55,971 bases of DNA from Hydrurus foetidus (lineage: Eukaryota), in the NCBI GenBank assembly GCA_900617105.1, contig UYFQ01000143.1, positions 62,001 through 117,971 of the forward strand. Direction: 5' to 3'. The notes beneath the pieces were generated by a model. The model had not been told where the DNA came from. It was given only the letters and a program-made list of their open reading frames with translations, and did not search any database. Positions 1 through 54,524 of the stretch are shown here, piece after piece. The position numbers and the translations under genes are program-made. Position 1 is the first letter of the stretch. Each line of letters starts with the position of its first letter.

Positions 1-2
1 AT

Positions 3-1478
<1,476 letters not shown>

Positions 1479-1600
1479 TTGCTGCTCTACTCCGGGAGCG
1501 TGAAGAACTCCCGGAGGTTCAACCCTTCGGACCCGAAGAGATTGACTACAAGTCGAAGGATACCTTCGCTCCTTTCCAAGACAATCCAACAGAGGATAAA

Positions 1601-2566
1601 TTGTACCTCATCGATTTAATACACATCGATGGTACCCCTGACCAAATAGCAAAAATAAGAGCAATCTGTGTCAAACACATTAAGCTTTTCAACAACAAAC
1701 TCGGGCCGGAACCTGCACGTATTCCACCGTTTGGACTACCCGTACGGGATCCAGAATGGAAAGTATTCAGGAATCGTGTAGCACCCCGACCAACGTCAAT
1801 ACGGAAACAAATTGAAATCCGTAAACAAGTTGATACTATGCTAGAACAGGGTATAATAGTCAAATCAGAGGCATCATACTACTCACAAGTTACACTTGCG
1901 TCTAAGCCAGACGGTTCATACCGATTCTGTATTGACTACCGTCACCTCAACGATGCAACAGAGTCAGCAAGCTGGCCAATCCCTAATATTAGACAAATGT
2001 TAGCGAGATTAGGTTCACAAAAGGCAGACACATTCGGTGTAATCGACCTCACTGCAGGTTATCACCAAGCCCCACTGACTCTGAGTACACGCGTGTACAC
2101 CGCGTTCATCACCTTTATGGGTATTTACCACTTTACCCGACTACCTTTCGGACCAAAAAGAGCTCCCTCATATTTCCAAGAAATGATGGCCACAATAGTC
2201 CTTCTGGGACTAATATATCACATTTGTGAAGTATACCTCGACGATATCATCGTTTATGGTAATGGATTTGAGGAATTCTGCGAACGTTTAGAAATTCTGT
2301 TTCAACGTCTCGAAGAAAAAAACATATCACTAAAAGCTGCAAAGCTTAAACTAAATGTAAAATTAGTTGAATATGTTGGTAAACAAATATCTAAAGAAGG
2401 TATAACTATGAGCTCTAAAAAAATAAGAGGTGTGACTGACTTTCCTATGCCAAGAAAGACGACCGAACTAAGATCGTTTCTTGGTCTCACCAACTATTTT
2501 CGGGATCATGTACCAAATCACTCTAACGTGGTTGCACCACTGCATAAAATGATAGTCCGGAATTAG
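1601..2566 (+). pseudogene. First (truncated) copy of the Gypsy reverse transcriptase
   Basis: RFCIDYR, DLTAGYHQ, LPFG and YLDD motifs. Truncated at the duplication junction 2554-2555. Confidence 0.85.
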
Positions 2567-2736
2567 CTACTCCTACTCCCTCATCCAAGGCACCAGCCCA
2601 AACACGTGGTTTAGTTGCTGCTCTACTCCGGGAGCGTGAAGAACTCCCAGAGGTTCAACCCTTCGGACCCGAAGAGATTGACTACAAGTCGAAGGATACC
2701 TTCGCTCCTTTCCAAGACAATCCAACAGAGGACAAA

Positions 2737-5529
2737 ATGTACCTCATCGATTTAATACAAATCGATGGTACCCCTGAACAAAAAGCAAGAATTAAAGCAA
2801 TTTGTGTTAAACACATAAAGCTATTCAACAACAAACTCGGACCAGAGCCCGCGCGAATTCCTCCCTTTGGGCTACCCGTACGGGATCCAGAGTGGAAAGT
2901 TTTCAAAAACCGCGTGGCACCCAGACCAACGTCTATACGAAAACAGGTCGAAATCCGCAAACAAGTTGACAGTATGCTTGAACAGGGTATAATAGTCAAA
3001 TCAGAGGCATCATACTACTCGCAAGTAACACTTGCGGCAAAGCCAGACGGTTCATACCGATTCTGTATTGACTATCGTCACCTCAACGACGCAACGGAAT
3101 CAGCAAGCTGGCCAATCCCTAATATTAAACAAATGTTAGCAAGATTAGGTTCACAAAAAGCAGACACATTCGGTGTAATAGACCTCACAGCAGGATATCA
3201 CCAAGCACCGTTAACTCTAAGTACACGTGTGTATACCGCTTTCATAACATTTATGGGCATTTACCACTTTACCCGACTACCTTTCGGACCAAAAAGAGCC
3301 CCCTCATATTTCCAAGAAATGATGGCCTCAATAGTCCTTTTGGGACTAATATACCAAATCTGTGAAGTATACCTCGACGATATCATCGTTTATGGTAATG
3401 GATTTGAACAATTCTGCGAACGATTAGAAATTCTATTTCAACGTCTCGAAGAGAAGAACATTTCACTAAAAGCCGCAAAGCTTAAGCTAAATGTGCAAAT
3501 AGTTGAATATGTTGGTAAACAAATATCTAAAGAAGGTATAACTATGAGTTCCAAAAAGATAAGAGGTGTGACCGACTTTCCTATGCCAAGAAAGACGACC
3601 GAACTAAGATCGTTTCTCGGACTCACCAATTATTTTCGGGATCATGTACCAAATCACTCCAACGTGGTGGCACCACTGCATAAAATGATAGATCACGCCG
3701 CGAAAAAGCAGTCAATGCTAATCTGGACAGATGACGCCGCAAATTCTTTTCAAAAGATAAAAGATCTAATTGCAAAGAGTCCTTTATTATATTTTATACA
3801 CGATACAGCGCCCATAACCCTTATGACCGATGCGTCGGATTACGGTATAGGCGGCTATTTGTATCAAGAAGTCGACGGAGAAAAACAACTCGTCGCTCTT
3901 GTCAGCAAGTCTCTTACCAAGACTCAACTGAAATGGTCAGTAATACAAAAAGAAGCCTTCGCGCTATATTATTGCTGTACTTATCTCGACGCACTGCTGC
4001 GAGATCGTAAATTCACAATCCTAACAGACCACAAAAATCTTACGTTCCTAGAAAAGGATAAAAACGAGATGGTCGGCAGATGGCGTATGGCCCTGCAGGA
4101 ACTAGAATATACGATAGGGTACATCCCGGGAAAACAAAATGAAATTGCTGACGCAATGTCTCGCCTATGTAAAAACAGAATGCCTCCTAAAACAGGAATA
4201 ATAGCAGCTATTCTGACACACAAACCAATGACGACCGAGCAATATAACCTAATTGCAACGTGCCATAACACGATAGTCGGACATGGTGGTGTACAACGCA
4301 CACTGCGTAATTTAAAGAAAACAAATAACATATGGCTGGGAATGCGTGACGCAGTAAAAACATTCATTAAGAATTGTCCTTGTTGCCAAAAGATGTCGGC
4401 GATGAAATATCCAATCAACGCCTACAGATACACAACGTCGACTTATAAACCAATGGAATGTCTCAACATCGACTTCATTGGCCCATTCCCCGATAAAGGA
4501 TATATCCTTGTTATGATCGACACCTTCTCAAGGTTTGTCGAACTCTACGCAACACCTGATGCAACAGCTAAATCAGCGTGCACAGCACTCGTAGAACACG
4601 TGGGGCGATACGGCTCACCGTGTATACTTCGATCAGATAATGGACCCCACTTCGCAAGCCACATCATAGATGAGTTTGTGAAAATTGTTGGAACAACACA
4701 CAACAAAATATTACCATACTGTTCAGAAGAAAACGCTATTGTCGAACGTATCAACAAAGAAATCAATCGCCACATAACCGCGTACGCATACGAACGGGCG
4801 ACTACGGAAAACTACGCGGAAATATTACCGTTTGTACAAAGAATACTAAATTCAACCGTAAATGACCGGATGAAAGTGTCTCCAGCACAACTCATCTACG
4901 GCAACGCGATCGACCTCGACGCGAACATCCTCCTTCCGAGAGATGAAATTGATTTAGATTTCGAATCACTCACACGGTCAACTGATAAAATGTTAACGTT
5001 GCAAGATGAACTCATCGAAATCACCGCACGTCTACTAAAACAATCCGACGACTTGCACAATGCACAACAATCTCCCAACATCACACAGTTCGGAGTCGAC
5101 ACATTTGTGCTCGTGCAACAAAGAACAACACCAGAAACACGCATGCACACACTGTGGCGTGGCCCAATGCGAGTTATAAGTCATAACTTCGCAGAGTATA
5201 CATTACTCGATCTGGTAACACACAAAGAAAAGTTGTACCACATGACTCAACTAAAACCGTTTCACTTTGATCCTACACATGTCGACCCAACTGACATTGC
5301 TCGTAGAGATTATCTGAAATTCTTCATAGAAGATATCCTAGACATGAAAGGAAACATAAGAGCATACAAATCGCTCACATTTCATGTGAAATGGCTCAAC
5401 TATACTCATGAACACAACACATGGGAACCATGGACACACATGCGTAAATCGCAAAAAGTACATGAGTTCTTAATTAAAAAGAACCTCAAACACTTGATAC
5501 CACGCGAATTCATCGCGAACTACCGTTAA
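2737..5529 (+). CDS. Gypsy Pol: RT, RNase H, integrase and chromodomain
   Basis: YLDD; RNase H TDAS/KEA/TDH/ADAMSR; HHCC zinc motif (H..GH...CPCC); integrase D(NIDF)-D(SDNG)-E(VER); GPY/F-like WRGPM; chromodomain FFIEDIL...VKWLNY...NTWEP. Confidence 0.95.
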   Translation: MYLIDLIQIDGTPEQKARIKAICVKHIKLFNNKLGPEPARIPPFGLPVRDPEWKVFKNRVAPRPTSIRKQVEIRKQVDSMLEQGIIVKSEASYYSQVTLAAKPDGSYRFCIDYRHLNDATESASWPIPNIKQMLARLGSQKADTFGVIDLTAGYHQAPLTLSTRVYTAFITFMGIYHFTRLPFGPKRAPSYFQEMMASIVLLGLIYQICEVYLDDIIVYGNGFEQFCERLEILFQRLEEKNISLKAAKLKLNVQIVEYVGKQISKEGITMSSKKIRGVTDFPMPRKTTELRSFLGLTNYFRDHVPNHSNVVAPLHKMIDHAAKKQSMLIWTDDAANSFQKIKDLIAKSPLLYFIHDTAPITLMTDASDYGIGGYLYQEVDGEKQLVALVSKSLTKTQLKWSVIQKEAFALYYCCTYLDALLRDRKFTILTDHKNLTFLEKDKNEMVGRWRMALQELEYTIGYIPGKQNEIADAMSRLCKNRMPPKTGIIAAILTHKPMTTEQYNLIATCHNTIVGHGGVQRTLRNLKKTNNIWLGMRDAVKTFIKNCPCCQKMSAMKYPINAYRYTTSTYKPMECLNIDFIGPFPDKGYILVMIDTFSRFVELYATPDATAKSACTALVEHVGRYGSPCILRSDNGPHFASHIIDEFVKIVGTTHNKILPYCSEENAIVERINKEINRHITAYAYERATTENYAEILPFVQRILNSTVNDRMKVSPAQLIYGNAIDLDANILLPRDEIDLDFESLTRSTDKMLTLQDELIEITARLLKQSDDLHNAQQSPNITQFGVDTFVLVQQRTTPETRMHTLWRGPMRVISHNFAEYTLLDLVTHKEKLYHMTQLKPFHFDPTHVDPTDIARRDYLKFFIEDILDMKGNIRAYKSLTFHVKWLNYTHEHNTWEPWTHMRKSQKVHEFLIKKNLKHLIPREFIANYR

Positions 5530-5731
5530 CCGGTAAAATCAAATCGATTAACTAAATCATAAAGATTCCTCCTAAATTTGATCCTCAAGGATTTTCGGGA
5601 GGTTTATTCAGTAAGGAACTTTCAGTTCTTAGTCTAAAATAGTTATTCAATTAGTTAGTTAGTTATTCATAGTTAGTATTTTGATGATGAATTTTGTTAA
5701 TTAGTACACCCCTTGAAAGAGAGAGGGGCAC

Positions 5732-5880
5732 TGTGACCCGAACACCCGTACGGGCTGTACGGGTACAGGCGTACGTCCGGTTCGGATCGAGGACGATCCG
5801 ATCCACACGATTCATTGCCATGATATCTGCTGTGTTTACCTGTAAGCTAACCACTTTGCTATCATAGCTTTAGCCCCACA
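5732..5880 (+). repeat. Putative Gypsy 3' LTR (right boundary uncertain)
   Basis: Starts TGTG right after the PPT; candidate end CACA at 5880. The 5' LTR is not in the window for comparison. Confidence 0.4.
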
Positions 5881-6603
5881 GCATCTTCCCTTTGTCCACG
5901 CGCCCTCAGACCTCCGCTCCCGTTGCCCTGAGACCTAGCAAGGCCACAATGACAAGGAAAAGAAATCAGTGCCAGAAGCCAAGAAATCAGGAAATGAGTA
6001 AAAAATTAGAGACTAGCATACAATCGCGTAGCCATCTATGCAGGCAGAACCATGAATTTACAAAGATTGAAATTGCAACGAGTATCTGGAAAGTAGAGGA
6101 GAAAAAAGAGGGGCGTAAAAACTCAAGGATCCTTTTTTTTAGTTCATCAATTAAAGTCGATCAAGAATTATACACTATATTACTTGTGATTCATTTTCCT
6201 TCGTGCAACTTCGTAGGATTCGACCAATTCGACTAGAAGATTCTAATCGAAGTGGATGACTTACCGCCACAAGAAAGCCTAAGATACATGGGGCAGTCCG
6301 TTATACACATCATAATATTATGCAGTACCGACTGTACGTTCGAATTTTGTCGAGAGTGTAGATATTACCAGAGCAGAATAAAGTGTCCACTTTTCGGTGG
6401 GAAAAAACTCAAATGAAGTGATGATAATAAGCACCCCACACGGCCCCACACCATACTAAAAAATAAAAAAATAAAAATGGCGAACGTTCCCCGGTTTTTG
6501 TATTTTTTAGTATGGTGTGGGGCCGTGTGGGGTGATCGATTTATCATCACTCCATCTGAGTTTTTCAAAGAAAAGGGGACATTTTATTTTTTATTCTGCT
6601 CTG

Positions 6604-6944
6604 TGTTGGAGATATCGTAGTTTATGACACGGACACAATCAGTGTACTTATGCATTCGTACGGTCGTACGGATTAATTTGTGTGTGTGTGTGTGTGTGTG
6701 TGTGCGTACATGCGTGACGACGATGTGTGGACCCGTGCATCGTCTCTGTACTTCAAGCGTAGTGTAGAATGTCTTTTGTTGTTGCGTTGAAAGGGACTCG
6801 GGGACTTCAGCAGGGATGAAGCACAGTCAATTAACAAGTGTTTACTGCCATCCAAGAGCTTATTTCACGAGTCCTGACCGAGTGACCTTCAACCACAGTA
6901 CAGCGAGAGGCGTACGTGTGGGCCGAACCGAAGATCCGTCAACA
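6604..6944 (+). repeat. Copia A 5' LTR (341 bp)
   Basis: TGTTGG...TCAACA. Matches 11886-12223 except for 3 nt in the T/(GT)n tract. Confidence 0.97.
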
Positions 6945-6954
6945 TAATTGACTG
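6945..6954 (+). promoter_or_regulatory. Non-tRNA primer-binding site of Copia A, complementary to LTR 6824-6833
   Basis: TAATTGACTG directly follows the LTR; its reverse complement CAGTCAATTA lies in the LTR. No TGG start. Confidence 0.7.
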
Positions 6955-6968
6955 CCACAGGCATTCCG

Positions 6969-9900
6969 ATGCCTCCCAAACGCGCCGCAGAAGCTTTCAA
7001 AAGTACAGAGGAGTGTATGCTTCAATACGGCAAGCACAACAACATTATCAAATGGAGAGAACACATGCAAACGGTTGTAACCGAACTATACGGAATAGTT
7101 GGCATGTTCTTCACCACAAATGTGAGATACGAGCTCCCGAGAGTTTCTTACAGGGATTACCCTGCAGACTCGTCATCGGAAAGCTCCAGTTCCGAAGAAG
7201 ATGACGAGATAGTTGAAGGTCAACAGGAACAACCGCCTCACCCAGAGACCGTGGCGTACGCCGCCGCGAGGCCTGCTCGCATCGCCGCCAGACAGGCGAG
7301 GAACGAGAGGAGGCGTAAAGCGTCAGAACGCTCTAGAGCGAAATTTAAAGAAGATGATTACATACAGAGAAAGAGGGACATCAAAACGCAGAAAGAGAAC
7401 GAACGTACGATGTACCCGATGATGTGGAAGCGCATGTCGCTGCTATCACAAAGTAGGGTGAGGGAGGAGGAAGATTTCAAGACCGCATATGACACCCTGG
7501 ACTGTGTCATGTTGTGGACGCTCATAAGGAGGACTCACCTCACACACATGTACGGGGGCGATGAGACACTGCAGGAGTACAACCAACACGAACAGGAGAG
7601 TAAGTACGGCTCTATGAGGCAAGGTGAGAGAGAGCACATTGTCACCTTCAAGAACAGATTCGATGAACAGGTGACCGCGAACGCTGCTGTCGGAATCGCC
7701 GCGGTGACAGAGTCGAAGCGAGCATTGGATTTCCTAGGGAAGCTCGACACTCGAAGGTACAAGGTCATGCTAGACGACATGAAGCATGACGCCTTACGAC
7801 GCAAACCAGGGGCGTTCCCAACCACACTCGCCCTAGCTTTCCACATCGCCTCAGAGTGGAATGACAGAGTCCCTGTATCCACACCCACACCAACACCTGC
7901 GGGTGCGAACGCAGCGTACGTGACCGAGGGAGTCCACGTCACAGCGGCCAAGGACCCGGAAAAGAAAGCGGGGAAAGCCGGAGGTGGCAGCAAGAAATCC
8001 TTAGCAGACGTCGAGTGCTACAAATGCGAAACAATGGGACACTACGCGCGGAACTGCCCACAGAAGAAATCGTCGTCATCGGAAAAAGTCCACGTCACGG
8101 TGGAAGAGTCAGACGAAGAATACGAAGGAGAGTCGAGCGAGTGGGGTGTAGCTCTTGTCACTGGCGACGAAATATGCTGCTTCTCCAGATTCGACGTGCT
8201 GTTAGACAACGAGGCCTCGCTCAACATATTCAATAACGCTGAGCTACTAACTGACCTGAGGAAGTCGCAGTCGACAATTCGAGTGAGCGGTATCCAGCAA
8301 GGAGGAGGAGTGAGCGTGGATCGGGAAGGGGAGTTCGGAGAGTTTGGCACGGTGTACTACAGTAGTTCGGCATCGGCGAACATCCTGTCTTTCGCGTCGC
8401 AGGTCGACTCCGGTGCGTCAATCAGATATGACCACCTGAGCGACTGCTTCACTCTGAGGCCGAAGAGCAGCACGAGGATCTATCGGTTCGGGAGAAAGCG
8501 AGTCGTAGGAAGCGAGGGGAGGTTCTACTCGTGCGATTGGAGGGATGTCGAGCACGACAAAGCGTTAGTAACTACGGTAGTTGAGAATCTGAAAGCATTT
8601 ACGAAACGAGAAATCGAGCAGGCGAGACGAGCTCGTGAGCTGCTCGCTAGGATGGGCTTCCCTACAGTGGAACAGGCGATGTCGATCGTGAACAGCGGAA
8701 GTAATTTCGACATTACTGCGAGAGATTTCCAGATCGCTGATGCGATATGGGGCAAAGATATAGCCTCTATAAAAGGGAAAACAGTGAAGAGAGCTACTGC
8801 TATCGCTGATATTACAGTCAGCACGAAATTAATGCAAAGGGATCAGGTGCTGTCTATCGACATTATGTTTATAGACAAACTAGCGATACTAGTTGGGGTA
8901 TCTACACCACTGGGACTAACTATTGCATATAGCCTAAACACAGCAGATCTAACAAAGCCAGCGAGGACAGCAGCGCAAGTAAAGATCGGGATAAACCATT
9001 TTATCGCAGTCCTCGCTGCGCAAAACTTCAGGACCTCCATAATCATGAGCGACGGAGAGGGGGCTGTCAAGAGTCTCATTGACGAGCTGGGAAGGCTCGG
9101 TGTGGAGGTTGACGTGAGTGGAGCCGGCGGCCACGTCGCTAGGATTGAGAGAAAAATTCGCATTGTTAGAGAACGGGTACGATGTCACGTAGCGTACCAC
9201 CTTCCGTTCACACTATCGACGGTGGGTATCGCCATGCTCGTACTGTACTGTATATCCAGGCTGAACTACGAACCGGCCGGATTACGGGAATGGGGCCCGA
9301 GTCCGCGTGAAGCATACATTGGTAGGAAGCCTGATGGTAAGAGAGACTTTAGATGCTCGTTCGGAGATTATGTGCAATGTACCGTTCCTAACACTGATTC
9401 AGGATTCAAGAGCCGAACCGAGGACTGTGTGGTTATGCTCCCCCTTGGAAACCGCACGGGCTCAGTGAGAATGCTTTCGCTCAGCACAGGAAGACTCGTG
9501 AACAGGGACCAATTCAGAGTGCTACCGATGCCCGAGTCAGTTATAAAGAGACTAAATGAACTCGCACATGCAGATGGTAGAGTAAAAGGGAAGGGTGATC
9601 TGTACGCACGGCCCACGTTGTACGAGCAGTACGGGAACGCTGCTAAGGGACTGCCTGACACGATGGAACCCAACGTCAACAACGGTGTGGATCCGTCGAT
9701 AGAACCTCTAGATGATGACCGTGAGACTAGAAACGAAGAGGCAGACAACGGTGACCAGCATCACGACAGTGGAGGAGAATTGGGTGAACAACAGTACGAC
9801 AACGGCGAAGCACCGAGCGAAGTAGATCCGAGGGACGACAGTGAACCATACGAGGAAGCGGTACAGGGCGAACAACCAGATGAGCGCGACAATGATATGG

Positions 9901-11819
9901 ATGATCTGGTCGATAGTATGAGCCGGATGCGAGCCGGACCAAGGAACCAAGTTGAAGATCCCACGGGGGGATTAGATGAGAGGGGTATACCGGAGGACTA
10001 CACATCGACAGACGGGACACGAGACGAGTACAGCGATGCGAGAGGAGCAGTGAGCCGAGCGACGGAGCTGCTCGCTGCACCTGCACCGCACTACGGGATA
10101 AGTAGACATGAGGTGATGGACTTCTTTAGGAACGGTGGTGGAACCGCGCTTCTAACGCGCAACTACGACGGTGACGGTGCAGACTGGGGAGACTATGTAC
10201 TTAACATATCGGTAAACGAAGCGCTGAGGACCAGGGGTGATGCGGCGCTGAGTGTGATTGAAAAAGAGCTAAAGCAGATGGTCGATAAGAAGGTGTGGGC
10301 ACCTGTCTCTGTGAGCGACCTATCAACGGAGGAGAAGCACCGAATCATCAGGTCAAGCATGTTCCTGAAGGAGAAATTCCTCGCGAGCGGGGAGTTCGAG
10401 AAGCTTAAGGCGCGGCTGGTCGCCGGAGGGAACCAGCAGGATCGAGATCTATACGATGATCTGTCGGCACCAACAGTTGCGACGAGCTCAGTGTTCACAC
10501 TACTGAGCATAGCAGCGCACGAGAATAGGATGATCACAGTGATTGACATCAGCGGCGCATTCCTCAATGCGGACATGGATACGGGACTAGCGGTGCACAT
10601 GAGGTTAGATAGGAACATGTCGAACATTATGACTAAATTGGCTCCCCATTACTCGCGCTTCACAGATCATAAGGGGTGCATAGTGGTGAAGCTGGACAAG
10701 GCACTGTATGGGTGTGTGGAGTCGGCTGCACTATGGTACGAGAACTTGAGAGCGAGCCTGTCCGATTTGGGATACTCACCCAATGCACACGACATGTGTG
10801 TCTTCAACAAACACGATGAGTACGGGGTGCAATGCACTATTGCGGTGCACGTAGATGATCTGATGATCACTAGTGCGAACGGCGAAATGATCGAGTCAGT
10901 GTCGGCCGGTCTGATAAAAAGGTATGGAGACATTACGAGGAAAAATGGACCTATTGTGAATTACCTAGGCATGGTATTCGACCTTACCACTGCAGGCAGA
11001 GCGCGAGTGTCGATGACGGGATACGTGGAGGACATGCTGAGGGAAAGCGGCACAACAGGGGGTGCAAGGACCCCAGCAACGGAGGGACTGTTCGATGTGA
11101 GAGACGACAGCGACATGGCGAGTGAGGAGCAGCGCGTGCGGTTCCACAGATTGGTAGCGAAAATGCTCTACCTGGCGAAGCGTGCGAGGCCCGACTGTCT
11201 GACTGCGGTGGCGTACCTTGCAACACGGGTAACACGGTGCAGCGTGGATGACCTTGGGAAGCTTGAGCGTCTGTTGAAGTATGTGAACAACACGAAGGAT
11301 AGAGGTATAGCGTTCGAGGCAGGTGCGAAAGGAATCGTCGTGAGTGTTCTCATCGATGCGGCGTACGGAGTGCATCCGGACGGGAGGTCGCATACGGGGA
11401 GCTGCGTGGTGATCGGAACGAGGGGTGCGGTGCACAGCAAATCGGCGAAGCAACAGATCGTCACCAAGTCGAGTACGGAGGCGGAGCTCGTTGCATTATC
11501 TGACTCAACTAACCAAGCGCTTCACATGAGACACTTCATTATAGGACAAGGACACGCGTGTGGACCAGTGACAGTGTACCAAGACAACATGTCATGCATG
11601 TCACTAATCGAGAGAGGGCGGTCAGCGGCGGAGCGGACGCGCCATATCGCCATCAGATACTTCTGGCTCAAGGAGAGGGTGGATCAAGGAGAAGCGAGAG
11701 TGCGACACCTGGGGACCAAGGAGATGTACGCGAACCTTCTGACGAAGCCGCTACAAGGTGCACAGTTCAAGTGCGAGAGACAGGGGCTTACGGGATGGGA
11801 TGCAACCACAGTAGTTTAG
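6969..11819 (+). CDS. Copia A Gag-Pol polyprotein (gag, CCHC, protease, integrase, RT, RNase H)
   Basis: CYKCETMGHYARNC; protease LLDNEAS; integrase SIDIMF/MSDGE/IERK; RT KARLVAGG, KALYG, HVDD; RNase H DAAY, SSTEAE, QDN. Integrase lies before RT, the Copia order. First ATG at 6969. Confidence 0.97.
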   Translation: MPPKRAAEAFKSTEECMLQYGKHNNIIKWREHMQTVVTELYGIVGMFFTTNVRYELPRVSYRDYPADSSSESSSSEEDDEIVEGQQEQPPHPETVAYAAARPARIAARQARNERRRKASERSRAKFKEDDYIQRKRDIKTQKENERTMYPMMWKRMSLLSQSRVREEEDFKTAYDTLDCVMLWTLIRRTHLTHMYGGDETLQEYNQHEQESKYGSMRQGEREHIVTFKNRFDEQVTANAAVGIAAVTESKRALDFLGKLDTRRYKVMLDDMKHDALRRKPGAFPTTLALAFHIASEWNDRVPVSTPTPTPAGANAAYVTEGVHVTAAKDPEKKAGKAGGGSKKSLADVECYKCETMGHYARNCPQKKSSSSEKVHVTVEESDEEYEGESSEWGVALVTGDEICCFSRFDVLLDNEASLNIFNNAELLTDLRKSQSTIRVSGIQQGGGVSVDREGEFGEFGTVYYSSSASANILSFASQVDSGASIRYDHLSDCFTLRPKSSTRIYRFGRKRVVGSEGRFYSCDWRDVEHDKALVTTVVENLKAFTKREIEQARRARELLARMGFPTVEQAMSIVNSGSNFDITARDFQIADAIWGKDIASIKGKTVKRATAIADITVSTKLMQRDQVLSIDIMFIDKLAILVGVSTPLGLTIAYSLNTADLTKPARTAAQVKIGINHFIAVLAAQNFRTSIIMSDGEGAVKSLIDELGRLGVEVDVSGAGGHVARIERKIRIVRERVRCHVAYHLPFTLSTVGIAMLVLYCISRLNYEPAGLREWGPSPREAYIGRKPDGKRDFRCSFGDYVQCTVPNTDSGFKSRTEDCVVMLPLGNRTGSVRMLSLSTGRLVNRDQFRVLPMPESVIKRLNELAHADGRVKGKGDLYARPTLYEQYGNAAKGLPDTMEPNVNNGVDPSIEPLDDDRETRNEEADNGDQHHDSGGELGEQQYDNGEAPSEVDPRDDSEPYEEAVQGEQPDERDNDMDDLVDSMSRMRAGPRNQVEDPTGGLDERGIPEDYTSTDGTRDEYSDARGAVSRATELLAAPAPHYGISRHEVMDFFRNGGGTALLTRNYDGDGADWGDYVLNISVNEALRTRGDAALSVIEKELKQMVDKKVWAPVSVSDLSTEEKHRIIRSSMFLKEKFLASGEFEKLKARLVAGGNQQDRDLYDDLSAPTVATSSVFTLLSIAAHENRMITVIDISGAFLNADMDTGLAVHMRLDRNMSNIMTKLAPHYSRFTDHKGCIVVKLDKALYGCVESAALWYENLRASLSDLGYSPNAHDMCVFNKHDEYGVQCTIAVHVDDLMITSANGEMIESVSAGLIKRYGDITRKNGPIVNYLGMVFDLTTAGRARVSMTGYVEDMLRESGTTGGARTPATEGLFDVRDDSDMASEEQRVRFHRLVAKMLYLAKRARPDCLTAVAYLATRVTRCSVDDLGKLERLLKYVNNTKDRGIAFEAGAKGIVVSVLIDAAYGVHPDGRSHTGSCVVIGTRGAVHSKSAKQQIVTKSSTEAELVALSDSTNQALHMRHFIIGQGHACGPVTVYQDNMSCMSLIERGRSAAERTRHIAIRYFWLKERVDQGEARVRHLGTKEMYANLLTKPLQGAQFKCERQGLTGWDATTVV

Positions 11820-11885
11820 TTAAATTATTACGGCAACATATGCGTGATGTGTGAATAGAAATGATTGTGATGTGGCATAGGGGTG

Positions 11886-12223
11886 TGTTGGAGATATCGT
11901 AGTTTATGACACGGACACAATCAGTGTACTTATGCATTCGTACGGTCGTACGGATTAATTGTGTGTGTGTGTGTGTGTGTGTGCGTACATGCGTGACGAC
12001 GATGTGTGGACCCGTGCATCGTCTCTGTACTTCAAGCGTAGTGTAGAATGTCTTTTGTTGTTGCGTTGAAAGGGACTCGGGGACTTCAGCAGGGATGAAG
12101 CACAGTCAATTAACAAGTGTTTACTGCCATCCAAGAGCTTATTTCACGAGTCCTGACCGAGTGACCTTCAACCACAGTACAGCGAGAGGCGTACGTGTGG
12201 GCCGAACCGAAGATCCGTCAACA
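11886..12223 (+). repeat. Copia A 3' LTR (338 bp)
   Basis: Direct repeat of 6604-6944. Confidence 0.97.
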
Positions 12224-12411
12224 CTCTGGTAATACTGTAGTAGATACCATCGAAGTGAGCTCTGAGCTGTACCTTAGCAGTTCTCAGTTCTCACTGATGT
12301 CTGCTGAGTTTGCTATGCGTTAGATCATCCCCATCTGCGATCTGCGCAAGAAAGGTTCAGCGACTGCAAAGTTTTTTACGATAAACTTTGGGCAACCTTT
12401 GCAGTGGACAA

Positions 12412-15400
12412 ATGGGACCTAATAGTGGTGGAGGTCGAAAAAATGCTGGACCTGCGAATACTGCAGCTCGGGCACGTTTTAGTACGTGGAAGCCTCCTGT
12501 TAAAGGGAAAGGCTCTGCCGGTGACAATGATGGTGACAGCAGGAGCTCTAAGAAAGGTGTCGATGTCACTAGGCTTGTTGGTGCAAAGGGAAAAGTGGCA
12601 TCATCAGCAAGCGCAGTCTCTACAAGGGTGCGATCATCATCAGGTGGACTTCCCCCTTGGATTGACGTAAATGCTTTAGAGTCCATTTCTTTGTCACGCG
12701 AACTTCTAGTCAAGCTTTTTAGATACATGAACTTCAATGCTGCGAATACCGCGGGAGATGGAAAAGAAAATCCGAATAGTGGTTTATCAGTCATATCAAA
12801 TCCAGCGAATAAAGTACTGGCAGCCAGCGTTAGAGACTCTCTTGATGCTTTTAAAAAAAGTGAGGAAGGCTTAGAAAGCGACTCCGATGCAAATATCAGG
12901 GAGTTAGAGCAGAAAATCATGAGGTTAAAGTTGTCTAAAGAAGCCAAATCAAAGAACAGCAGTCAATCAGATGCAGACAGCAGGAATCAAAAAGATGAAA
13001 AAGCAGCTACACTCAGCCATTTCCAAAACTTAGGTTTCAGTTCAGACGAAATTAATCACGTTTGCAATGTGTTGCATTCAGACTGCGAGATGAAATCGGC
13101 TGATAACGAAAGTGTTTTCCTCGTCTTATTAGCCAACATTTCTCACCAGGAACTCCCAATGTCTGGAAACACTACAACAAATACAATCAACCTGCAGCAG
13201 CAAAGACGTATTGCAGAGAACAATACAGACCTAACCGATGAGTGCGATGTTCTGAAGAGTATTTATAGTGCAGCAGCTTCTACACAAATGATATCAATCT
13301 TGGGAGGAATATGCAGTATTATCGATTTATCTCTTGCTGAGAGCGATTTGAATATTCCTGGAAGCATTCGTTCTGCTGAAAAATCTGCAGAGGCTGCTTT
13401 GAATATACGGTTTGCCATTTACAGAGCAGGTGCTACATCAAGCTGATGCCCCTTCCCTTAGTCATATTTGAAATTTGTGTGCACAGATCGAGACTGTCTC
13501 AGACATGCAGCAGCTCGCAACATAGAATCAATTCTTTGATATAATCATGGTTCATATCAATGCTATTGCTGCTCTCTACGGCTGACAATGATCTGTTCTA
13601 CATTCTGTTTTCTGCAGTCTGTATTCGTCTACCTCTGACACTGACTGTTTTGTCATGCATTCTGCACTTAACATTTTGTATTCTGTATTCTGTGTTTCAA
13701 ACAATGACTGTTCTGTATTCTGTATGCTGTATTCAGACCTGTACCCCAGAGCGGGATCCATTGCCCTTGGGTGGGTCTCCAGTCCTTCCGAATTCATGGA
13801 TCCAAAGACCTGTCGAAAGTGCTCCGTAGATGCGGTGAGAATGTAGAGGATGATGGATATACTGTATTCTGTTTTTGTTTTTGTTTTATTCGTTGGGCTA
13901 TCGGTAGGGCTGATGTTGTTGTTGCTTCTGCTGTTGTTGCTTCTGTCATTGATGAAACTAGATGGTACCCCATTCTAAAGCACTCTCATTTTCCTCTGCC
14001 ATGTACAGATGAACACCATCCACTCATTACATCAAGGTCAAGCCTGCGCCTTCGACTTCATTCAATGCGTCCTGTCCTCGACAACTGCTTCTGCTGAGAA
14101 AAAAAGAAAAAACCTTGTTCTCGAAAAAGAAGAGCAGCAGGTCGCCGAGTATTACGAGAGGGCTGCCAAGAAAGCTCTCGCAGAGTCAAACGCAAGGAAA
14201 GAAGCGATACTGAAACAGACAAATCAGCTCGCTGACATCGCTACCAAGGCTGAGAATGACAGGAGGAAATTCAAATCAAAGGCAGACACACAGACTAATG
14301 CACAGAGACAGGAACAGAAACACGGCCCTCTGGCACTTGGACTAGGACCGGACGACCCGCCCCCCATCCCCGTCAGGAAAGTGCTAACAATGCCAGAGAA
14401 GAAATGGACGGAGCTGCCGGAGTACAGAAGTGCGTACTTGCAGGCACTCAATGAGGGGCTAGGAGGAGCAGCAGCCAGGGCTCGAACCAGAGATCTGCTG
14501 ACTAATGTTCTCGCAGAGGTACGATAGAGTGTAGTGGCGTGCAGAGCAGTATGGTCGAGTGCAGGGGTGCAGTACCGTACAGCTTAAGAAGATGTAGTGC
14601 AGGAAAGTGCAGGGTCGTTGAGTTTAGTATGGTGCAGTGCAGGGCAGTTGAGAAGAGTAAAGTATAGTACAGTGGGGGTTGATGCAGTGCGGTGGAATAC
14701 AGTATGATGTGGCGCAGTGCAGTGTATGCTGCATTGTACTGCGGAATCGAGCAACAGAGTGTGATGCAGTATGATGCATAGCAGTGCAGTATGGTGCATA
14801 GCAGTGCAGTATGGTGCATAGCAGTGCAGTATGGTGCATAGCAGTGCAGTATGGTGCATAGCAGTGCAGCATAGCAGTGCATGGTGCATAGCAGTGCAGT
14901 ATGGTGCATAGCAGTGCAGTATGGTGCATAGCAGTGCAGTATGGTGCATAGCAGTGCAATATGGTGCATAGCAGTGCAGTATGGTGCATAGCAGTGCAGT
15001 ATGGTGCATAGCAGTGCAGTATGGTGCATAGCAGTGCAGTATGGTGCATAGCAGTGCAATATGGTGCATAGCAGTGCAGTATGGTGCATAGCAGTGCAGT
15101 ATGGTGCATAGCAGTGCAGTATGGTGCATAGCAGTGCAGTATGGTGCATAGCAGTATGATGTAATGCATTGCAGGAGAACGCGAAGAAAATAAACACGCG
15201 CTTCTGGAGATATAGTGCACTTCGTCTCATATTGGTATCTTGTGTCCTTTGACGTATGATTTGCAAAGATAAGGATACTGTCTTTGATTTTTGATTGAGT
15301 CCAGTATCCTAGTCGTTTGAAAAAATCAGTAGTTACGTTAACTTTGCCACTGTAATCTCTTTCGCAAACTACACTCAACAACATTTACTTCAACACACCA

Positions 15401-18400
15401 CCCCCTACGCTGCTACACTCTCACCCTTCTCTCTCTCTCTCGATCACCTCACTACGATATCAACAGAGCACAATGCGAGCCATTGTGAAGGAAGAAAACA
15501 AAATCGAAGAATACAAGAACCAGTCTTACGATATTGAGAAATTGGGTGTGAGCGGTGAGATTGCGTGCACGAAGACATTGATGGGGAGCAGTGGGTTGTC
15601 CAAGTCCAAAGCAAAGGCACTGCTGCAGTCAACGCTAATGGTGAGGAATATGCTATATCTACATTGCCATTGCTTGTGACCGTGGTGCATTAGTGCAACG
15701 TATTCCATCAATACGCTAAATATCGAACATGTTGTATTCCATTGCAAATACAAATGTGATATCATGCCGTATAGCGAGATAATATGTTACGCTCTACTGC
15801 AAAGTATTGTGTTACATTGCAAATACAAATGTGATATCATGTTGTATAGCGAGATAATAAGTTACGCTCTACTGCAAAGTATTGTGTTACATTGCAAATA
15901 CAAATGTGATATCATGTTGTATAGCGAGATAATAAGTTACGCTCTACTGCAAAGCATTGTGTTACATTGCAAATACAAATGTGATATCATGTTGTATAGC
16001 GAGATAATAAGTTACGCTCTACTGCAAAGCATTGTGTTACATTGCAAATACAAATGTGATATCATGTTGTATAGCGAGATAATAAGTTACGCTCTACTGC
16101 AAAGTATTGTGTTACAATGCAAATACAAATGTGATATCATGTTGTATAGCGAGATAATAAGTTACGCTCTACTGCAAAGTATTGTGTTACAATGCAAATA
16201 CAAATGTGATATCATGTTGTATAGCGAGATAATAAGTTACGCTCTACTGCAAAGTATTGTGTTACATTGCAAATACAAATGTGATATCATGTTGTATAGC
16301 GAGATAATAAGTTACGCTCTACTGCAAAGTATTGTGTTACAATGCAAATACAAATGTGATATCATGTTGTATAGCGAGATAATAAGTTACGCTCTACTGC
16401 AAAGTATTGTGTTACATTGCGAAGTTTAATCTGATATTGTATCATATTTTAAGACGCCTCTCTGTGCCATGTCATTCAGTGAAGTGGTCCTGAACATAAT
16501 TACTGCACATCGCCTGTCTTCTTAACTGCACCAATCACCCTCCCTAGATGCTGATCGAAAGGGGACAGGGCTATGCGAGAGATGAGGAATCCATGAAATC
16601 TAAATGGGTAGCGGAGTCTCTCAAGGCTCTCAAAGAAAGTCAAGGAGGGGCACTGAGCAAACAGTCAGTGTCAAGCCCCAGTCATTCTCTCATAGAGGAG
16701 AATGGAAGGAGGGGTGGTGTGTCTGATGCAGTAGAGAATGGCAATGATGTTGAGGTGGGTAATAGTGGAGGTGGGAGTAGGGGTGGGGATGGAAGGGAGT
16801 CAGTCAAGGTGGAGGCAGTGGAGAAGAAGTTCAGTGGTGGGTTTAGTCTGGAGCAGTGTGTGGCGGCAGTGAGGGAGAAGGCCAGGGAAAGAGAAGAGGC
16901 TGCTCAAAACCGTATGCCCGATATTTCGACTGGTGCCAACGGAGGTATGTACTTGCGTAACGTACTGTGTTGAGAGAAGATACGATAGGACGGTCCTCTT
17001 CTACGTGTCTCGGTATGGTGGTTTGAGATGTCATCTTCTACAGTCCTCGTTATATCTATTTTCTTTGAGTCTCTCATTCGATACTCTCTTCTCTTCCATT
17101 AGCGATGCCCATGTCCTTGCGTCCCCTTGCTTCCCCTTATCTATCAGTCTGCCTGACTCACTTCCTCAAGTTTCTCTTGAGTGCACCGCACCGCATCACA
17201 CTTCACTACTTGACTCTACTGTACATCGACTACTCTAGACTACTCTACACTATACTGCATCGCACTACACTACACTGCACAGCACCACACTGCACTACTC
17301 TGCACCTCATCACGCTATACCTCACCGCACCAAACTTCACTGCACTAAACAACACTACACTACATTTAACCATACCTAATTACCCTGTATCACACCACAC
17401 TCCACCTCATCGCATAGACAAGGCGGAGGAGTTGCGCAGACAGCAGAGGAGCGAGCTGGAGAGCAGGAGACTGACCACCGACCTCGAGAACAAAAGAGCG
17501 AATAAAAAATATCAAGACCTGCTCTCTGTGAGAACCAGTCTACCTGCCTTTCAGATGAGGTACCGTATAGTATATAATGTGTCATGAGTTATATGATTAC
17601 TGGATGAGTGATATGGGGTGGTGAGATAAGAGTTAGGTTTGATCGGATTAGATCAAATTAATTTGTTAAGATGCTGATTGAGAATGTGAGAAGTGGAGGG
17701 GAGAATTGAATGCGAGATGAGACTGGTGCGTGACATGACGCGACGTGACATGGAGGAGTACAGTCCACGATATTTTTGCAGCTGATTCCTTTTAACTCAT
17801 CCGAATATGCACAGGGAGAACATAGTGAACACCATTTTGTCCAACAGAGTTGTGGTCGTTTCAGGGGACACTGGATGCGGTAAGACAAGAGAGGAAGACT
17901 GGACTTTGTTTTACATGCGATGTTTCTGCAAGCTTGCCTCCCACTCCCACTCTCTCACATGCCATTACTCACCTTTCTGCATGTACACATCCGTGCTATA
18001 CACAATATCAGGTAAGACAACGCAGATCCCCCAATTGGTGCTAGACGCAGCCATCGACATGGGGAGAGGGGCGGAGATCAATCTCGTGGTCACACAGCCG
18101 AGACGTATCAGCGCCATCTCCGTGGCAGAGAGAATCGCTCAGGAGAGAGTGGAGACTGTGGGCCAGACTGCAGGTATGAAGAGCAGTTGGCGGTATCAGT
18201 GTTGCCCTTGCTTGACGCATTTTTCCGTTCTGTTTCTCCTTTTTCTTTCTTTCTTTCTTTCTATCTTTCTTTCTTCTCTCTGTCCTTCTTTCTTGCTTAC
18301 TTTCTTCCTTTCCTTCTTCTTTCTTTTCGATGTCTCTCTTCTTTACTTTTCCTTTCTTTTTTTGAAATATTAGCTCTAATGACCACAAATCTTCTGCACT

Positions 18401-30663: not shown

Positions 30664-31237
30664 CAATTTTATGCCTTGATTCATTTGTGTTAATTACGTC
30701 ACTTTTCGTCATGATAGACTTCAAGAAACTTCGTGACATTCCTTCTCGATCTCTGACAGAGTTATTGACAAAACCAATATCAAACAGTGACTTCGTACGC
30801 CATGCCAGCTCACTTAGACGATTTTGACAGAGTCATTTCTAGATGTAAAGAGCAGTTATATTGTCATAATCTAAATGATTTCCAAAAAATTAAAAACTTC
30901 AGGAATTTGATGAGAACAGAGGGTTTGTTTCTGATGCCTTCAGTTTGAATTTGAAAAAGTTCCGAAGTCCCTCCGGCACCTCATCATTGTAAGTCGATAA
31001 CTTTCAACAGCGCAAAATACATCCTCAACCTTTCCGAAGTGTGAGATTTTTGCAAAGAGCTGCGGATTACATAGAGTGGCCCATCGACGGCTTCCAGATG
31101 TGCTTGCTCTTGCTCTAGCAACTTTGGGCCAAGCTGGCAACTCAAACGGACTGTTCCCTTTACTGTGTTCTGCAAATTGCAAGAACTTCAGAGCGAAGAC
31201 TCAACTTTACCCACCTCAATCCGTAAATAATTGCTTG

Positions 31238-33620
31238 ATGAAATTGCTGAAGTCCCTACTTGTTTCGAATGTTCCGAAAGCAACAAATGGAAGAGGGATC
31301 AGTCATACAGTTGTTCTGGTACGCCATGGCGAATCTGTCTGGAACGTCGCACAGCGCTTCACTGGTTGGTGCGATGTACCCCTAACAGAACACGGCGAAG
31401 CCGACGCGCTCGATGCTGGAACTTTGATGCGTGAGAGAGGCATAAAGTTTGATGTTGCATTTACAAGCACTTTGGAGCGCGCATGGAAAACATGTGACAT
31501 CGCATTGGAGGCAGCAGGCCAAGCCGATTCTGTCGAGACGATACGATCGTGGAAGCTCAACGAGCGACATTATGGCGCACTGCAGGGCCACTCAAAGGAC
31601 TCACAGAAACTTCTTGATACTTTTGGCGAAGAGAAGATTCTCGAATGGCGGAGGTCTTACGACACTGCACCTCCATCCCTGTACGACAGAAAGTTCGCAA
31701 GGGATATGGGTATGGAGTCATTCGCAAGAAGGTCCACGACGCTCATGAATCCAAGATTTCTAGACACCCGTATGATGCACAGATCTGTAGCGAGTCTCAG
31801 CGATAGTGACCCCTACTCGGACATGATGGGAAGCGACTTCCCGTACCCATCTTCAGAGAGCCTGAAGGAATGTGAGGACCGAGCATACGGATTCTGGTTG
31901 GATGTGATTGCCCCACGTGTGAGGGTATGATGCGGGAGAAAATACTGTAATCTTCATGCACCTCACTGCTGAGTGTATTGACGGTTCCATCTTCTCCTCT
32001 TACATTCTGACTGTTGGATTGCTAATGCATCATGTGTCTCCATTATTATCAGGCTGGAGACCGAGTGCTGATTGTTTCTCATGCTAACACAATAAGAGCA
32101 CTGGTGAAAGCTGTCGATCAAGTGAGTGTCCCTGTCTCTATTGGATCCACTCCTCACTCTGTGATATTTTGTTTTGATTACACTCTCTCTCCTTTTTCCT
32201 CCTTTCTTTTCGTCAATTAAATTGCGTCCCATCACCTATCTTATTCCATCTCCTCACACTACACTACAATCTTCACTACCCTTTAGCGATCTCCCTAACC
32301 AAACGCCCCCCCCCCCCACCCACACACAACTCCCTCGCACTCCATCACACTCCCTCAGATCGATGACAGCATGATCGCTCACTTGAAGATTCCCAACGGC
32401 ATTCCTCTCGTCTACACCATGGACGAGAACTTGAACCCGATTCTAGACTACACGGATGACTTGGGATTTCAGGCGAATTATTTGGTGTCTGCGAGAAATC
32501 ATGGGAAGGTGGGTCGAGGTCTACCTGCTGAGTATGTGTTAGAACTAGAACTAGAACTAGAACACGAACTCGAATTAGTTAGCTGTCATCTTCGGTCACT
32601 GGTGATATCTTCTACTAACTGTAAATGAACCATGACGCGTCTCTCCCGATTTGACAAAGAAAAAAATTCGAACATCAAACCAGTCTACTGACGCATGATT
32701 TACACACGTACAAATAGATGATGGCATACGAACGATGCGTGCGCAAGAAGTTACGCAGTCTATTCGAATACCTCGACACGGATAAGGACGGCCGCATCAC
32801 CCCTTCATGTCTGCAGAGCGGTCTTATACGGTTGCAGAACTATTCCATGGGGGTGGGGTGCAGTGCAACGTCAGAGGTGCCGCAGATATGCGAGTATGAG
32901 ATAGAGGAACTGCTCAGGGCTGTCCCAAGGTGAGATCAGAGATACGTCATTATCTGTGTTCTGTGTTCTGTCTGATCACTTTGAGGATTGTGTCTGTTGA
33001 AGTGTCTGTTGAAGTGTCTGTTCATCCCAACGTACTGTAAAGAGACATCCTCTATTCTGTATGACTTGAAGTTCAAGTCATCTGATGAAATGCCTGTCCC
33101 ACTGATGCAGCTTGCATGTCTTCAAGTGCTCGTACTATTGCTGTTGCTGTGTAGTAGTGTGGCGCTGCTCATGCCATCTGATAATACAATATCCCCAGTA
33201 GGCAGCATTCGCTACTGAGTTCTGTTTTATTCCCTCCTCTACTCATCTCCTCTATTCTTGTTCGATAGCTGATTTGCCTAACTTTCACAACACTAAATCT
33301 TTCTTTCTCACCCCCTAATTCTTTTTACCACTTCCTTCCTACACTGGTCTTCTCCTCCTCCCATCTCCTCTTCTTTCTGCTCCTATTCTCTTCTGAAATC
33401 TAAAATCTAAAATCCTCTACTCATCTCTCCTTCTCTCATCACCTCATCTCCTTCCCTCCTCTAGTCTGATCTCCTCTTTTATTCGCTTTAATTTCTTCGT
33501 CTTATTTTCTCTTCTTTCCTCTGTAGCGCTGATGAGCACGGTGGAGTTACTCTGAAGGCGTTTTTGGACTCCGAGAGAACTCTGCTGCCCAAACTGTCGA
33601 AACTGCGGCTGCTGCAGTAG
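31238..33620 (+). CDS. PGAM: 2,3-BPG-dependent phosphoglycerate mutase with C-terminal EF-hand-like pair, 5 exons
   Basis: RHGES, FTGW, LNERHYGALQG, WRRSY, ESLK, SHANTIR and IPNGIPLVY. Exons 31238-31924, 32053-32121, 32359-32508, 32718-32929, 33527-33620. LFEYLDTDKDGRIT is an EF loop. Confidence 0.9.
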
Positions 33621-43019: not shown

Positions 43020-43377
43020 TTCGTTGAAATATAGCAAAAACCAAAGTCGATGTCGCCTCAAATAAAACAAAGTACAAAGGAATCTTTCCCTTCACAAGTG
43101 TAAAGCGTCAGGTGACAGCAATTAACAATTTAACCAAGCACACTACTTTGCACTTCACTCTTGACTCATCACTCTTCAATCTTCGATCTTCAGTCTTCAG
43201 TCTTCACTCTTCACTCTTCACTCTTCACTCTTCACTTCCTATTGTGGCTGCTGCTGCTGGCTGTTGTACCTATCATACTGGGTATTCCGTAAGAGAGCCG
43301 CGTGTGTCACATAGCGACAAAATTAATGGTGTACTGAATTAACAGTTTGATGTACTGAATTCAATACTAAAGGTTAC

Positions 43378-43557
43378 GATTAGGATTAGGATTAGGATTA
43401 GGATTAGGATTAGGATTAGGATTAGGATTAGGATTAGGATTAGGATTAGGATTAGGATTAGGATTAGGATTAGGATTAGGATTAGGATTAGGATTAGGAT
43501 TAGGATTAGGATTAGGATTAGGATTAGGATTAGGATTAGGATTAGGATTAGGATTAG
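43378..43557 (+). repeat. Telomere-like (TTAGGA)n tract, ~30 perfect units
   Basis: 180 bp of uninterrupted GATTAG. Confidence 0.95.
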
Positions 43558-44028
43558 TCTATCTTCGGATTAGGATTTTGATCTCCAGATATCGAACATG
43601 CATTTTCAAGTCCATGCAGAAGAGAATCCGCTCATCAAAAAATAACAGTGAGATGCCACAATTGCGTTTTCTCGCATTGGCAACAACATGACTTATTCAC
43701 CGCGATTTTTGTGCAACTGTGTATCGAGTTATGGCTACTGTAAAAAAGAGCTATTTTTGACGATTTTGGAAAACTGTTCTACCAATAATAGGGGACTTGA
43801 CGGTCGTACCGTATAGTTTTCGGACCACAGACCTGACAAACGGGAACACTCTGTTCCTTTTCGTCCCCGCACGGGGAGCGGACAACCAGGCCAACGTTCC
43901 AGGCCAAAAGGCCAGGCCAAAATTGTAGTTCTTGATTAACATATGTAGCAGCGCGTGTGGCAGTGCCAGTAATTGCATGAAATCTACACTTAATCTCAGT
44001 CCGATAATTTCTCTCAATATTTTTTGCG

Positions 44029-52587: not shown

Positions 52588-52952
52588 TGTCGGAATAACT
52601 AATGAGCTAAGTAACCGTATAAGTTATTACGTATGTACATTTGATGACGTTTCGTACGTCGTGTGCCGTGTGGTGGTCGCTACTCCACCGGTCCAGGTTC
52701 CTTTAACCCAGGAACATCAAAAAGATGAAAGTGCACCATGTTTGACTGTGCGGGACAGCGCGATCTTTTCGCCTGTCTCCATGAACGATGTAAGCGATGT
52801 TGCATCGTTAATTACCTTAATACTCACACCAGCAGAGCTTTCGCCTTGAGCCCGGGAAAGTTGCTAGCGCACGTGTTGAACCTGCAGAAGGAGCGCGTAC
52901 CCAGGAAGGATATAGTCTTCCATTCAGTGGAAACTGATCCTTAGTTACGACA
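52588..52952 (+). repeat. Copia B 5' LTR (365 bp)
   Basis: Starts TGTCGGAATAACTAA exactly where the MULE TIR breaks, and ends TTAGTTACGACA (imperfect inverted ends). Confidence 0.8.
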
Positions 52953-52962
52953 TAATTAACGA
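52953..52962 (+). promoter_or_regulatory. Non-tRNA primer-binding site of Copia B, complementary to LTR 52805-52814
   Basis: TAATTAACGA follows the LTR; TCGTTAATTA lies within the LTR. Confidence 0.7.
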
Positions 52963-52989
52963 GTTGCTTTCGTTGCAACCAGTTGCAAC

Positions 52990-54108: not shown

Positions 54109-54193
54109 GTAAGATACATTATTCCTCACCTGTACACTCACCTGCACACATCCACACACACACCCTATACATACACTCATCGATCCTCCATGT

Positions 54194-54524
54194 TTGGCTG
54201 ATTCCACTAGCGGAATTGAAACATGTGATCATATTGTTTTTAGTGCCAATACATGCAATATATATAACATGATTAGAAGTAGACACATCCTGCTTGACAC
54301 ATGTGCTGGTGAGTCGGTTTTCAACGACTCATCCCTGCTGTATAATGTTGAACACGCACCCACACCTATGATTGTTAGCGGGGTGAATCCGAAAGGAAAA
54401 CCGCTGATAATCAAGAAACGTGGGGTGTCGGCGTTCGGCAACGTGTACTATAGCCCTGACTGTGCTGGTAACATATTGTCTTTTGGCAATGCTGTACGTG
54501 ACTGTACTGATGTTAAGTACTTAC
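54194..54524 (+). pseudogene. Copia B Pol N-terminus (protease), interrupted by a nested insertion
   Basis: ILLDTCAGESVF...VSGV...NILSF. Similarity to Copia A is lost after DVKY. Confidence 0.8.

Follow-up and report, generated by a model that had tools for sequence, protein, structure and literature searches.

The window analysed here, a stretch of 55,971 nucleotides of Hydrurus foetidus DNA (contig UYFQ01000143.1), contains several repeats and mobile elements. A Gypsy element with a chromodomain occupies positions 1-5900, with its 5' end lying beyond the window. Its RT region is tandemly duplicated, the copies being about 1135 nt apart and 91% identical over 300 nt, and the duplication yields two RT-bearing frames (1397-2566 and 2548-5529). 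Tandem arrays with a 20-bp unit (14711-15240) and a 75-bp unit (15657-16556) are located further along. A host gene for phosphoglycerate mutase is present at 31001-31930; the named eukaryotes among the 120 matches listed for this gene were Ochromonadaceae sp. CCMP2298 (56%) and Ectocarpus fasciculatus (53%), names that point to chrysophytes or other ochrophytes and make a chrysophyte host likely. A telomere-like interstitial TTAGGA array (43374-43559) is situated just before the remnant of a MULE-type transposase (44008-46959), and a long array with a 43-bp unit extends from 47230 onward. At 55090-55971, a stretch ending in CAACA precedes an ATG, from which an open frame continues past the edge of the window; judged by eye it is possibly the gag of another LTR element, and a scan identified no match of at least 10 nt in it.

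Between the Gypsy element and the first array lies element A (6604-12223), an intact and young Copia retrotransposon with a single ORF for 1616 aa (Table 1). The two LTRs are separated by 0 substitutions and 3 gap columns (341 versus 338 nt). Hallmarks of Ty1/copia include LTRs with TG...CA ends, a target-site duplication of 5 bp, within the norm of 4-6 bp, and a PPT. Pfam searches of the protein (P0001) identified RVT_2 (E 8.8e-27, aa 1134-1364) and zf-CCHC, with no match to rve, RVT_1 or Chromo. Motifs that we take to represent the protease and the integrase were recognized by eye ahead of the RT in an alignment of 18 proteins, and RNase H motifs follow RVT_2, which gives the Copia-type order PR-IN-RT-RH. 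The acidic residues of the RT and the RNase H are conserved, with the exception of the fourth RNase H position, which is Asn. With its Copia-type RT, domain order, LTRs, target-site duplication and PPT, element A belongs to Ty1/copia. Its DNA is present in metagenome runs from freshwater, sediment and air; no RNA run is among the 23 runs listed.

Table 1. Features of element A, with positions given in the window.
Feature	Position	Strand	Remarks
Left target-site duplication, CTCTG	6599..6603	+	Same 5-mer recurs at 12224-12228
5' LTR, 341 nt, TGTTGG...TCAACA	6604..6944	+	
Predicted transcription start, initiator-like CA context	6823..6825	+	Suggested by CA enrichment at arm starts across junctions
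Candidate self-primer (predicted RNA 5' end)	6824..6833	+	Exact reverse complement of the primer-binding site (PBS)
PBS, directly after the terminal CA of the LTR	6945..6954	+	Without TGG; opens with the N-A-A-T of the clade
C after the PBS, possibly a copy of the m7G cap	6955	+	Enriched across families; G variant in many sister contigs
Single gag-pol ORF, 1616 aa	6969..11819	+	CCHC knuckle in Gag; regions resembling protease, integrase, RT and RNase H follow in the Copia order
Purine-rich tract, likely PPT	11869..11885	+	Precedes the 3' LTR
3' LTR, 338 nt	11886..12223	+	Second arm copy at 12103-12112
Right target-site duplication, CTCTG	12224..12228	+	

The 5' LTR of element A is abutted by TAATTGACTG (6945-6954). 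The exact reverse complement of this sequence, CAGTCAATTA, is found on the forward strand in both LTRs (6824-6833 and 12103-12112) and on the reverse strand at the PBS (6945-6954), and these are the only 3 exact copies in the window. The arm within the 5' LTR, as we refer to the first of these copies, starts 121 nt ahead of the end of the LTR; the start codon of gag (6969) is located 14 nt past the PBS. An earlier sequence-only reading had concluded from this arrangement that the element primes on its own LTR rather than on a tRNA. Its coordinates were all correct; as it had stated, no TGG follows the 5' LTR, the PBS coming directly after the terminal CA, and the distances that it had put at about 120 and 14 nt were measured to 121 and 14 nt.

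When the bases of the LTR were shuffled, the 10-mer of element A turned up in 30 of 100,000 trials (3e-4), and dinucleotide shuffling gave it in none of 300. Folding of the segment 6824-6990, a check proposed in the sequence-only reading, brought the two arms together, but the overall stability was ordinary (z -0.92), and the signal thus lies in the anchored complementarity and not in the total energy. The duplex is short, 10 bp, and A/U-rich. Assuming that the RNA starts at the arm, pairing at the ten positions is predicted with an average probability of 0.98. The loop between the arms is not structured (z +0.5).

To collect relatives of element A, we scored 7992 candidates in a search with the RT-RNase H region, which yielded 849 proteins, and aligned 18 of these (alignment A2). 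The profile of this alignment fetched 79 metagenome loci, taken from the best 80 of at least 575 confirmed. A degenerate gag pattern retrieved 1 genome contig, L080, which is of the same family as element A, and gave no match in metagenome contigs; no relatives were found among viral contigs. An apparent gag start was present in 50 of the 80 loci, which together with element A gave 51 junctions, while 30 loci with no 5' end were excluded by eye. Contigs assembled as circles were closed at their overlap before the junctions were analysed. For a blind test, the LTR end was defined as the best match to CAACA no more than 70 nt upstream of the gag ATG, ignoring complementarity. This left 42 junctions, 9 having been dropped since the rule failed or the sequence was too short. 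A junction was counted as matching if a reverse complement of 9 nt or more, free of mismatches, lay 30-300 nt upstream, with offsets of 0-2 allowed.

A perfect match of 9-25 nt to the LTR of the same element was present at 31 of the 42 blind junctions, in all cases at offset 0, whereas only 18 of 1720 cross-pairs between the PBS of one family and the LTR of another satisfied the same definition. Re-assignment by hand, at junctions where the ATG had been called wrongly or the LTR ended in a variant form, added 13 matches of 9-15 nt, which brings the total, post hoc, to 44 of 51. The letters differ by family, and the complementarity is conserved in sister families, as the sequence-only reading had demanded of its own proposal. 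Among the remaining junctions, the exact match covers 8 bases in L026 and 7 in L058, or more if one mismatch is allowed (by eye), L022 has a match of only 7 nt, and L003 has none, most of its LTR being apparently missing; L002, L044 and L064 are included in the 51 but cannot be judged. The positive loci come from all parts of the RT-RNase H tree, and the most distant of them share 40% identity with element A.

The same signature is found in a second, decayed Copia family in the window, element B, at 52588-54520, where 52805-52814, preceded by GCA, is the exact reverse complement of 52953-52962. The LTR of element B covers approximately 52588-52952, its gag ORF runs from 52990 to 54108 and a protease remnant is located at 54287-54520.

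For the analyses below we used a non-redundant set of 28 blind positives, from which L080, L078 and L079 had been removed as near duplicates. The 28 junctions contain 27 distinct PBS 9-mers, with match lengths of 9-25 nt. Three different pairs of PBS and arm, of 21, 19 and 25 nt, are carried by L012, L013 and L014, although these loci share 85-90% identity in RT-RNase H. The complementarity, its anchoring at the LTR end and its covariation are established, and a match that covaries family by family supports the proposal of self-priming independent of tRNA. A PBS that starts with TGG near the LTR, as in Copia elements primed by a whole tRNA, was seen at 0 of 42 positive junctions (28 blind, 13 hand-assigned and element B) when the first 0-3 nt after the LTR end were inspected. 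Each PBS fits its own LTR and not those of other families (31/42 versus 18/1720), and for element A alone the chance of a match is 3e-4, both of which make it very improbable that a host tRNA half or another small host RNA serves as the primer and that the LTR match is secondary or fortuitous. Priming by half-tRNAs does occur in Copia (Osser, Bryco, Gymco-II and Bianca; PMC6317226), and the PBS opens with a conserved N-A-A-T, but this start is all that is conserved (positions 2-4 in 27, 22 and 22 of the 28). One conserved tRNA cannot match 27 different 9-mers, and the lineage-wide conservation of the PBS that is expected of Copia elements primed by half-tRNAs, such as Osser, Bryco and Bianca, whose PBS pairs with the 3' end of a tRNA 5' half, is not observed. 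No tRNA genes were found within the window.

The start of the arm lies in an initiator-like sequence context. At 22 of the 28 junctions the first base of the arm is at CA or one base beyond it (3.2 expected from each LTR's own sequence; P 1e-16, a value that, like the other P values given here, overstates independence because the families share descent), and at 26 the arm begins after YA, which is the core of polymerase II initiators (8.0 expected). In the hand-assigned set (n=14) the corresponding numbers were 10/14 for CA and 12/14 for YA. The arm starts one base after the A at nine junctions, including that of element A, and the context GCA-CAGT of element A makes 6823, 6824 or 6825 possible starts, so that the start predicted at 6824-6825 in the sequence-only reading is better given as 6823-6825. 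Position counts for the sequence ahead of the arm reveal no prominent TATA-like motif.

The base that follows the PBS also shows a bias. It is C at 16 of the 28 junctions (7.9 expected, allowing for the base forbidden by the match; P 0.0012) and, among the 14 hand-assigned ones, at 8 (P 0.02); C is absent at 18 of all 42. Reverse transcriptases can add C opposite the m7G cap, and the C after the PBS therefore fits the copying of a capped primer into the plus-strand PBS. Sister contigs of this family often have G at the position of 6955 in element A, a C to G variant being present in contigs of all four DNA runs compared; this speaks against the reading as a cap copy, as does the lack of C at 18 junctions. 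No substitutions in either arm were among the 40 rows listed for these runs in the region 6560-7400, for which 189 more rows exist, and we do not count this as evidence.

Pairing of the arms was predicted with a probability >0.5 at 37 of the 42 junctions, with loops of about 45 to 225 nt and duplexes of 9-25 nt across the clade. The loops are only modestly structured, with a mean z of -1.08 and values below -1 in 19 of 42. At most junctions the gag ATG is located a few to about 45 nt past the helix, a position that would suit a long-range helix that seals off the 5' leader and acts in packaging, in dimerisation or in translational control at the gag AUG, some other molecule being the primer. 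Fungal GalEa Copia elements have a local hairpin of unknown role instead of a PBS (PMC5445492). Yet the 3' arm begins exactly at the LTR end in 31 of 31 blind cases, which is where a minus-strand primer must end, and no alternative PBS-like sequence is present. The pairing is moreover perfect, with no G-U, over up to 25 nt, which fits templated copying better, and the C after the PBS would be left unexplained. We thus consider such a different task for the helix to be improbable.

We find it likely, judging from these patterns, that the 9-11 bases at the very start of its own RNA serve element A as the primer for minus-strand DNA. Transcription by RNA polymerase II would initiate at the CA-rich initiator (6823-6825), and the capped 5' end of the RNA is predicted to fold back over the approximately 110 nt of R-U5 onto the PBS, to which it is complementary. 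The RNase H of the element would then, by analogy with Tf1, cut at the end of the duplex. As the PBS starts with N-A-A-T, the predicted primers end with A-U-U-N, which is a candidate cleavage signal, and a cut after this conserved motif would free a 3' OH that faces the terminal A of the LTR. From there the reverse transcriptase would extend the primer through U5-R. Finally, plus-strand strong-stop DNA would copy the primer while it is still attached and thereby rewrite the PBS in each cycle, sometimes with the gain of a C opposite the cap; in Tf1, the primer is reportedly retained. Such rewriting of the PBS from the RNA 5' end would explain how a perfect match of 9-25 nt persists despite the fast drift between families.

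Within self-priming, a route that differs from that of Tf1 must be considered, in which the primer is still the element's own 5' sequence but acts in trans or is released by some nuclease that is not RNase H. The source in trans might be another copy of the genome within the particle, or an abortive transcript that is short and capped. Tf1 requires, in addition to the primer, two flanking helices (PMC10085805), the so-called pretzel. In our clade, pairing in a Tf1-like helix after the PBS was seen in 8 of 28 own combinations versus 198 of 756 cross combinations, and in a helix at the U5 end in 11 of 28 versus 217 of 756, neither of which is an excess in this crude test of contiguous runs only. 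The lack of excess leaves room for a primer in trans or another nuclease, and so do the variable lengths of loop (about 45 to 225 nt) and duplex (9-25 nt) and the Asn at the fourth acidic position of the RNase H in the subclade of element A. On the other hand, the pairing predicted in cis at 37 of 42 junctions speaks for the Tf1-like route, as do the three main acidic residues of the RNase H, which all 44 junction-bearing elements retain, and the fourth, which is Asp in 34 of the 44 positives and Asn in 10. On sequence grounds, priming in cis and priming in trans look alike. This departure from the Tf1 route seems unlikely to us, and it would be a variant of the self-priming proposed above, not an alternative to it.

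In element A the Asn lies near residue 1591 of P0001 (YANLLTKP), and Asn is also found in all 18 proteins of alignment A2. The change from Asp to Asn was considered as a cause or marker of self-priming and rejected, since with Asp in 34 of 44 positives the fourth residue does not track the priming mode.

A precedent for the mechanism is provided by Tf1, where RNase H cuts off the first 11 bases, which serve as primer (PMC7175516). Like Tf1 and Tf2 of Schizosaccharomyces pombe in the Tf1/sushi group, element A has a PBS right after the 5' LTR, with complementarity to a stretch of the LTR; it is of similar length, 10 nt compared to 11 nt in Tf1 (PMC7175516, PMC10085805), and neither has an apparent tRNA match. 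The Tf1/sushi elements are, however, Ty3/gypsy chromoviruses with the order RT-RH-IN and a chromodomain, whereas element A is a Copia element with RVT_2, the integrase before the RT and no match to a chromodomain. Further differences are that the clade of element A gives no support for the two pretzel helices of Tf1, that its duplexes are 9-25 nt instead of 11 nt, and that the mechanism of Tf1 was shown by experiment while that of element A is predicted from sequence.

Within Copia, a parallel is found in the TAR lineage of plants. Neumann et al. 2019 (PMC6317226) predicted self-priming for 12% of plant elements, which belong to Tcn1, a Gypsy clade, and to TAR in Copia; the prediction relied on complementarity between LTR and PBS of at least 10 bp that begins 0-5 bp past the LTR. 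Element A shares the Copia superfamily with the TAR elements (Houba, Osr-1, Fourf) and has complementarity of the length and position used in that study (PMC6317226), but TAR is an angiosperm lineage and the relatives of element A are proteins from aquatic metagenomes and diatoms. Because self-priming has been predicted for Houba and Osr-1, the contrast drawn in the sequence-only reading between Gypsy elements that self-prime and Copia elements that use tRNA was too sharp (PMC6317226). Element A also resembles the fungal GalEa elements in the lack of a tRNA PBS and in an A/T-rich motif right after the LTR. The GalEa motif is conserved and pairs locally downstream, with no complementary LTR stretch in the account given in PMC5445492, while the motif in the clade of element A varies and pairs with the LTR.

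To place this lineage, we compared the RT-RNase H region with protein clusters. The nearest Atlas clusters were eukaryotic, and Bacillariophyta was the commonest named phylum (3-4 members with records in each). Two proteins from Fragilaria crotonensis group with the junction-positive loci L075 and L079 (support 0.995, 67-73% identity) and are 38-39% identical to element A. With Bacillariophyta the commonest named phylum in the clusters nearest to its RT-RNase H, element A recalls the CoDi elements, the diatom Copia described by Maumus et al. 2009 (PMC2806351). The diatom proteins fall in the broad set of element A, but the tree is unrooted and was built from sequences other than named CoDi, TAR or outgroup elements, so that element A is CoDi-like only in a loose sense and is placed in none of the groups CoDiI, CoDiII and CoDi6. 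The lineage had been called stramenopile-type from sequence inspection; the support for this label is homology, in the form of matches to diatoms and ochrophytes. The main text of Maumus et al. 2009 (PMC2806351) contains no mention of tRNA, priming or Tf1. In a literature search to which subscription papers and repeat databases were mostly external, we found no description of self-priming in Copia elements of diatoms, chrysophytes or other stramenopiles. Self-priming is a known mechanism, and this lineage is one for which we found no published description. The search accordingly agrees with the earlier statement that no case has been characterised in this lineage, although with TAR already predicted it is not the first for Copia.

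A broader idea, to which we give slightly less than an even chance, is that a large, deep Copia branch of diatoms and chrysophytes shares this mode. According to this idea, self-priming operates throughout the branch with a capped primer of 9-25 nt and no pretzel, the PBS is rewritten in each cycle from the RNA 5' end with its cap, and the mode either originated separately from Tf1/sushi and TAR or is an ancestral relic. If so, every genomic copy would record its own transcription start, and primer and PBS would drift together independently of host RNA. Experimental proof of self-primed reverse transcription is known only for the Gypsy element Tf1, with a prediction in one plant lineage for Copia. 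A protist Copia branch with family-by-family covariation would suggest that priming independent of tRNA is common rather than rare, and it bears on the ancestral self-priming LTR element that was raised as a possibility in PMC3601003. Self-priming predicts the transcription start to within 1-2 bases, the sequence of the primer and a cut after A-U-U-N. Being both intact and young, element A is a usable experimental subject. Annotation of LTR elements that requires a tRNA PBS would miss or mislabel such elements.

Two minor observations concern the contigs themselves. The contig of the element A family, L080:1-1613, sits in a bacterial MAG, most probably through mis-binning of eukaryotic DNA; it has exactly the arm and PBS of element A but a different U3. 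Three loci (L005, L060 and L073) contain head-to-tail copies with one LTR in common, which may represent tandem insertions, circles or assembly collapse.
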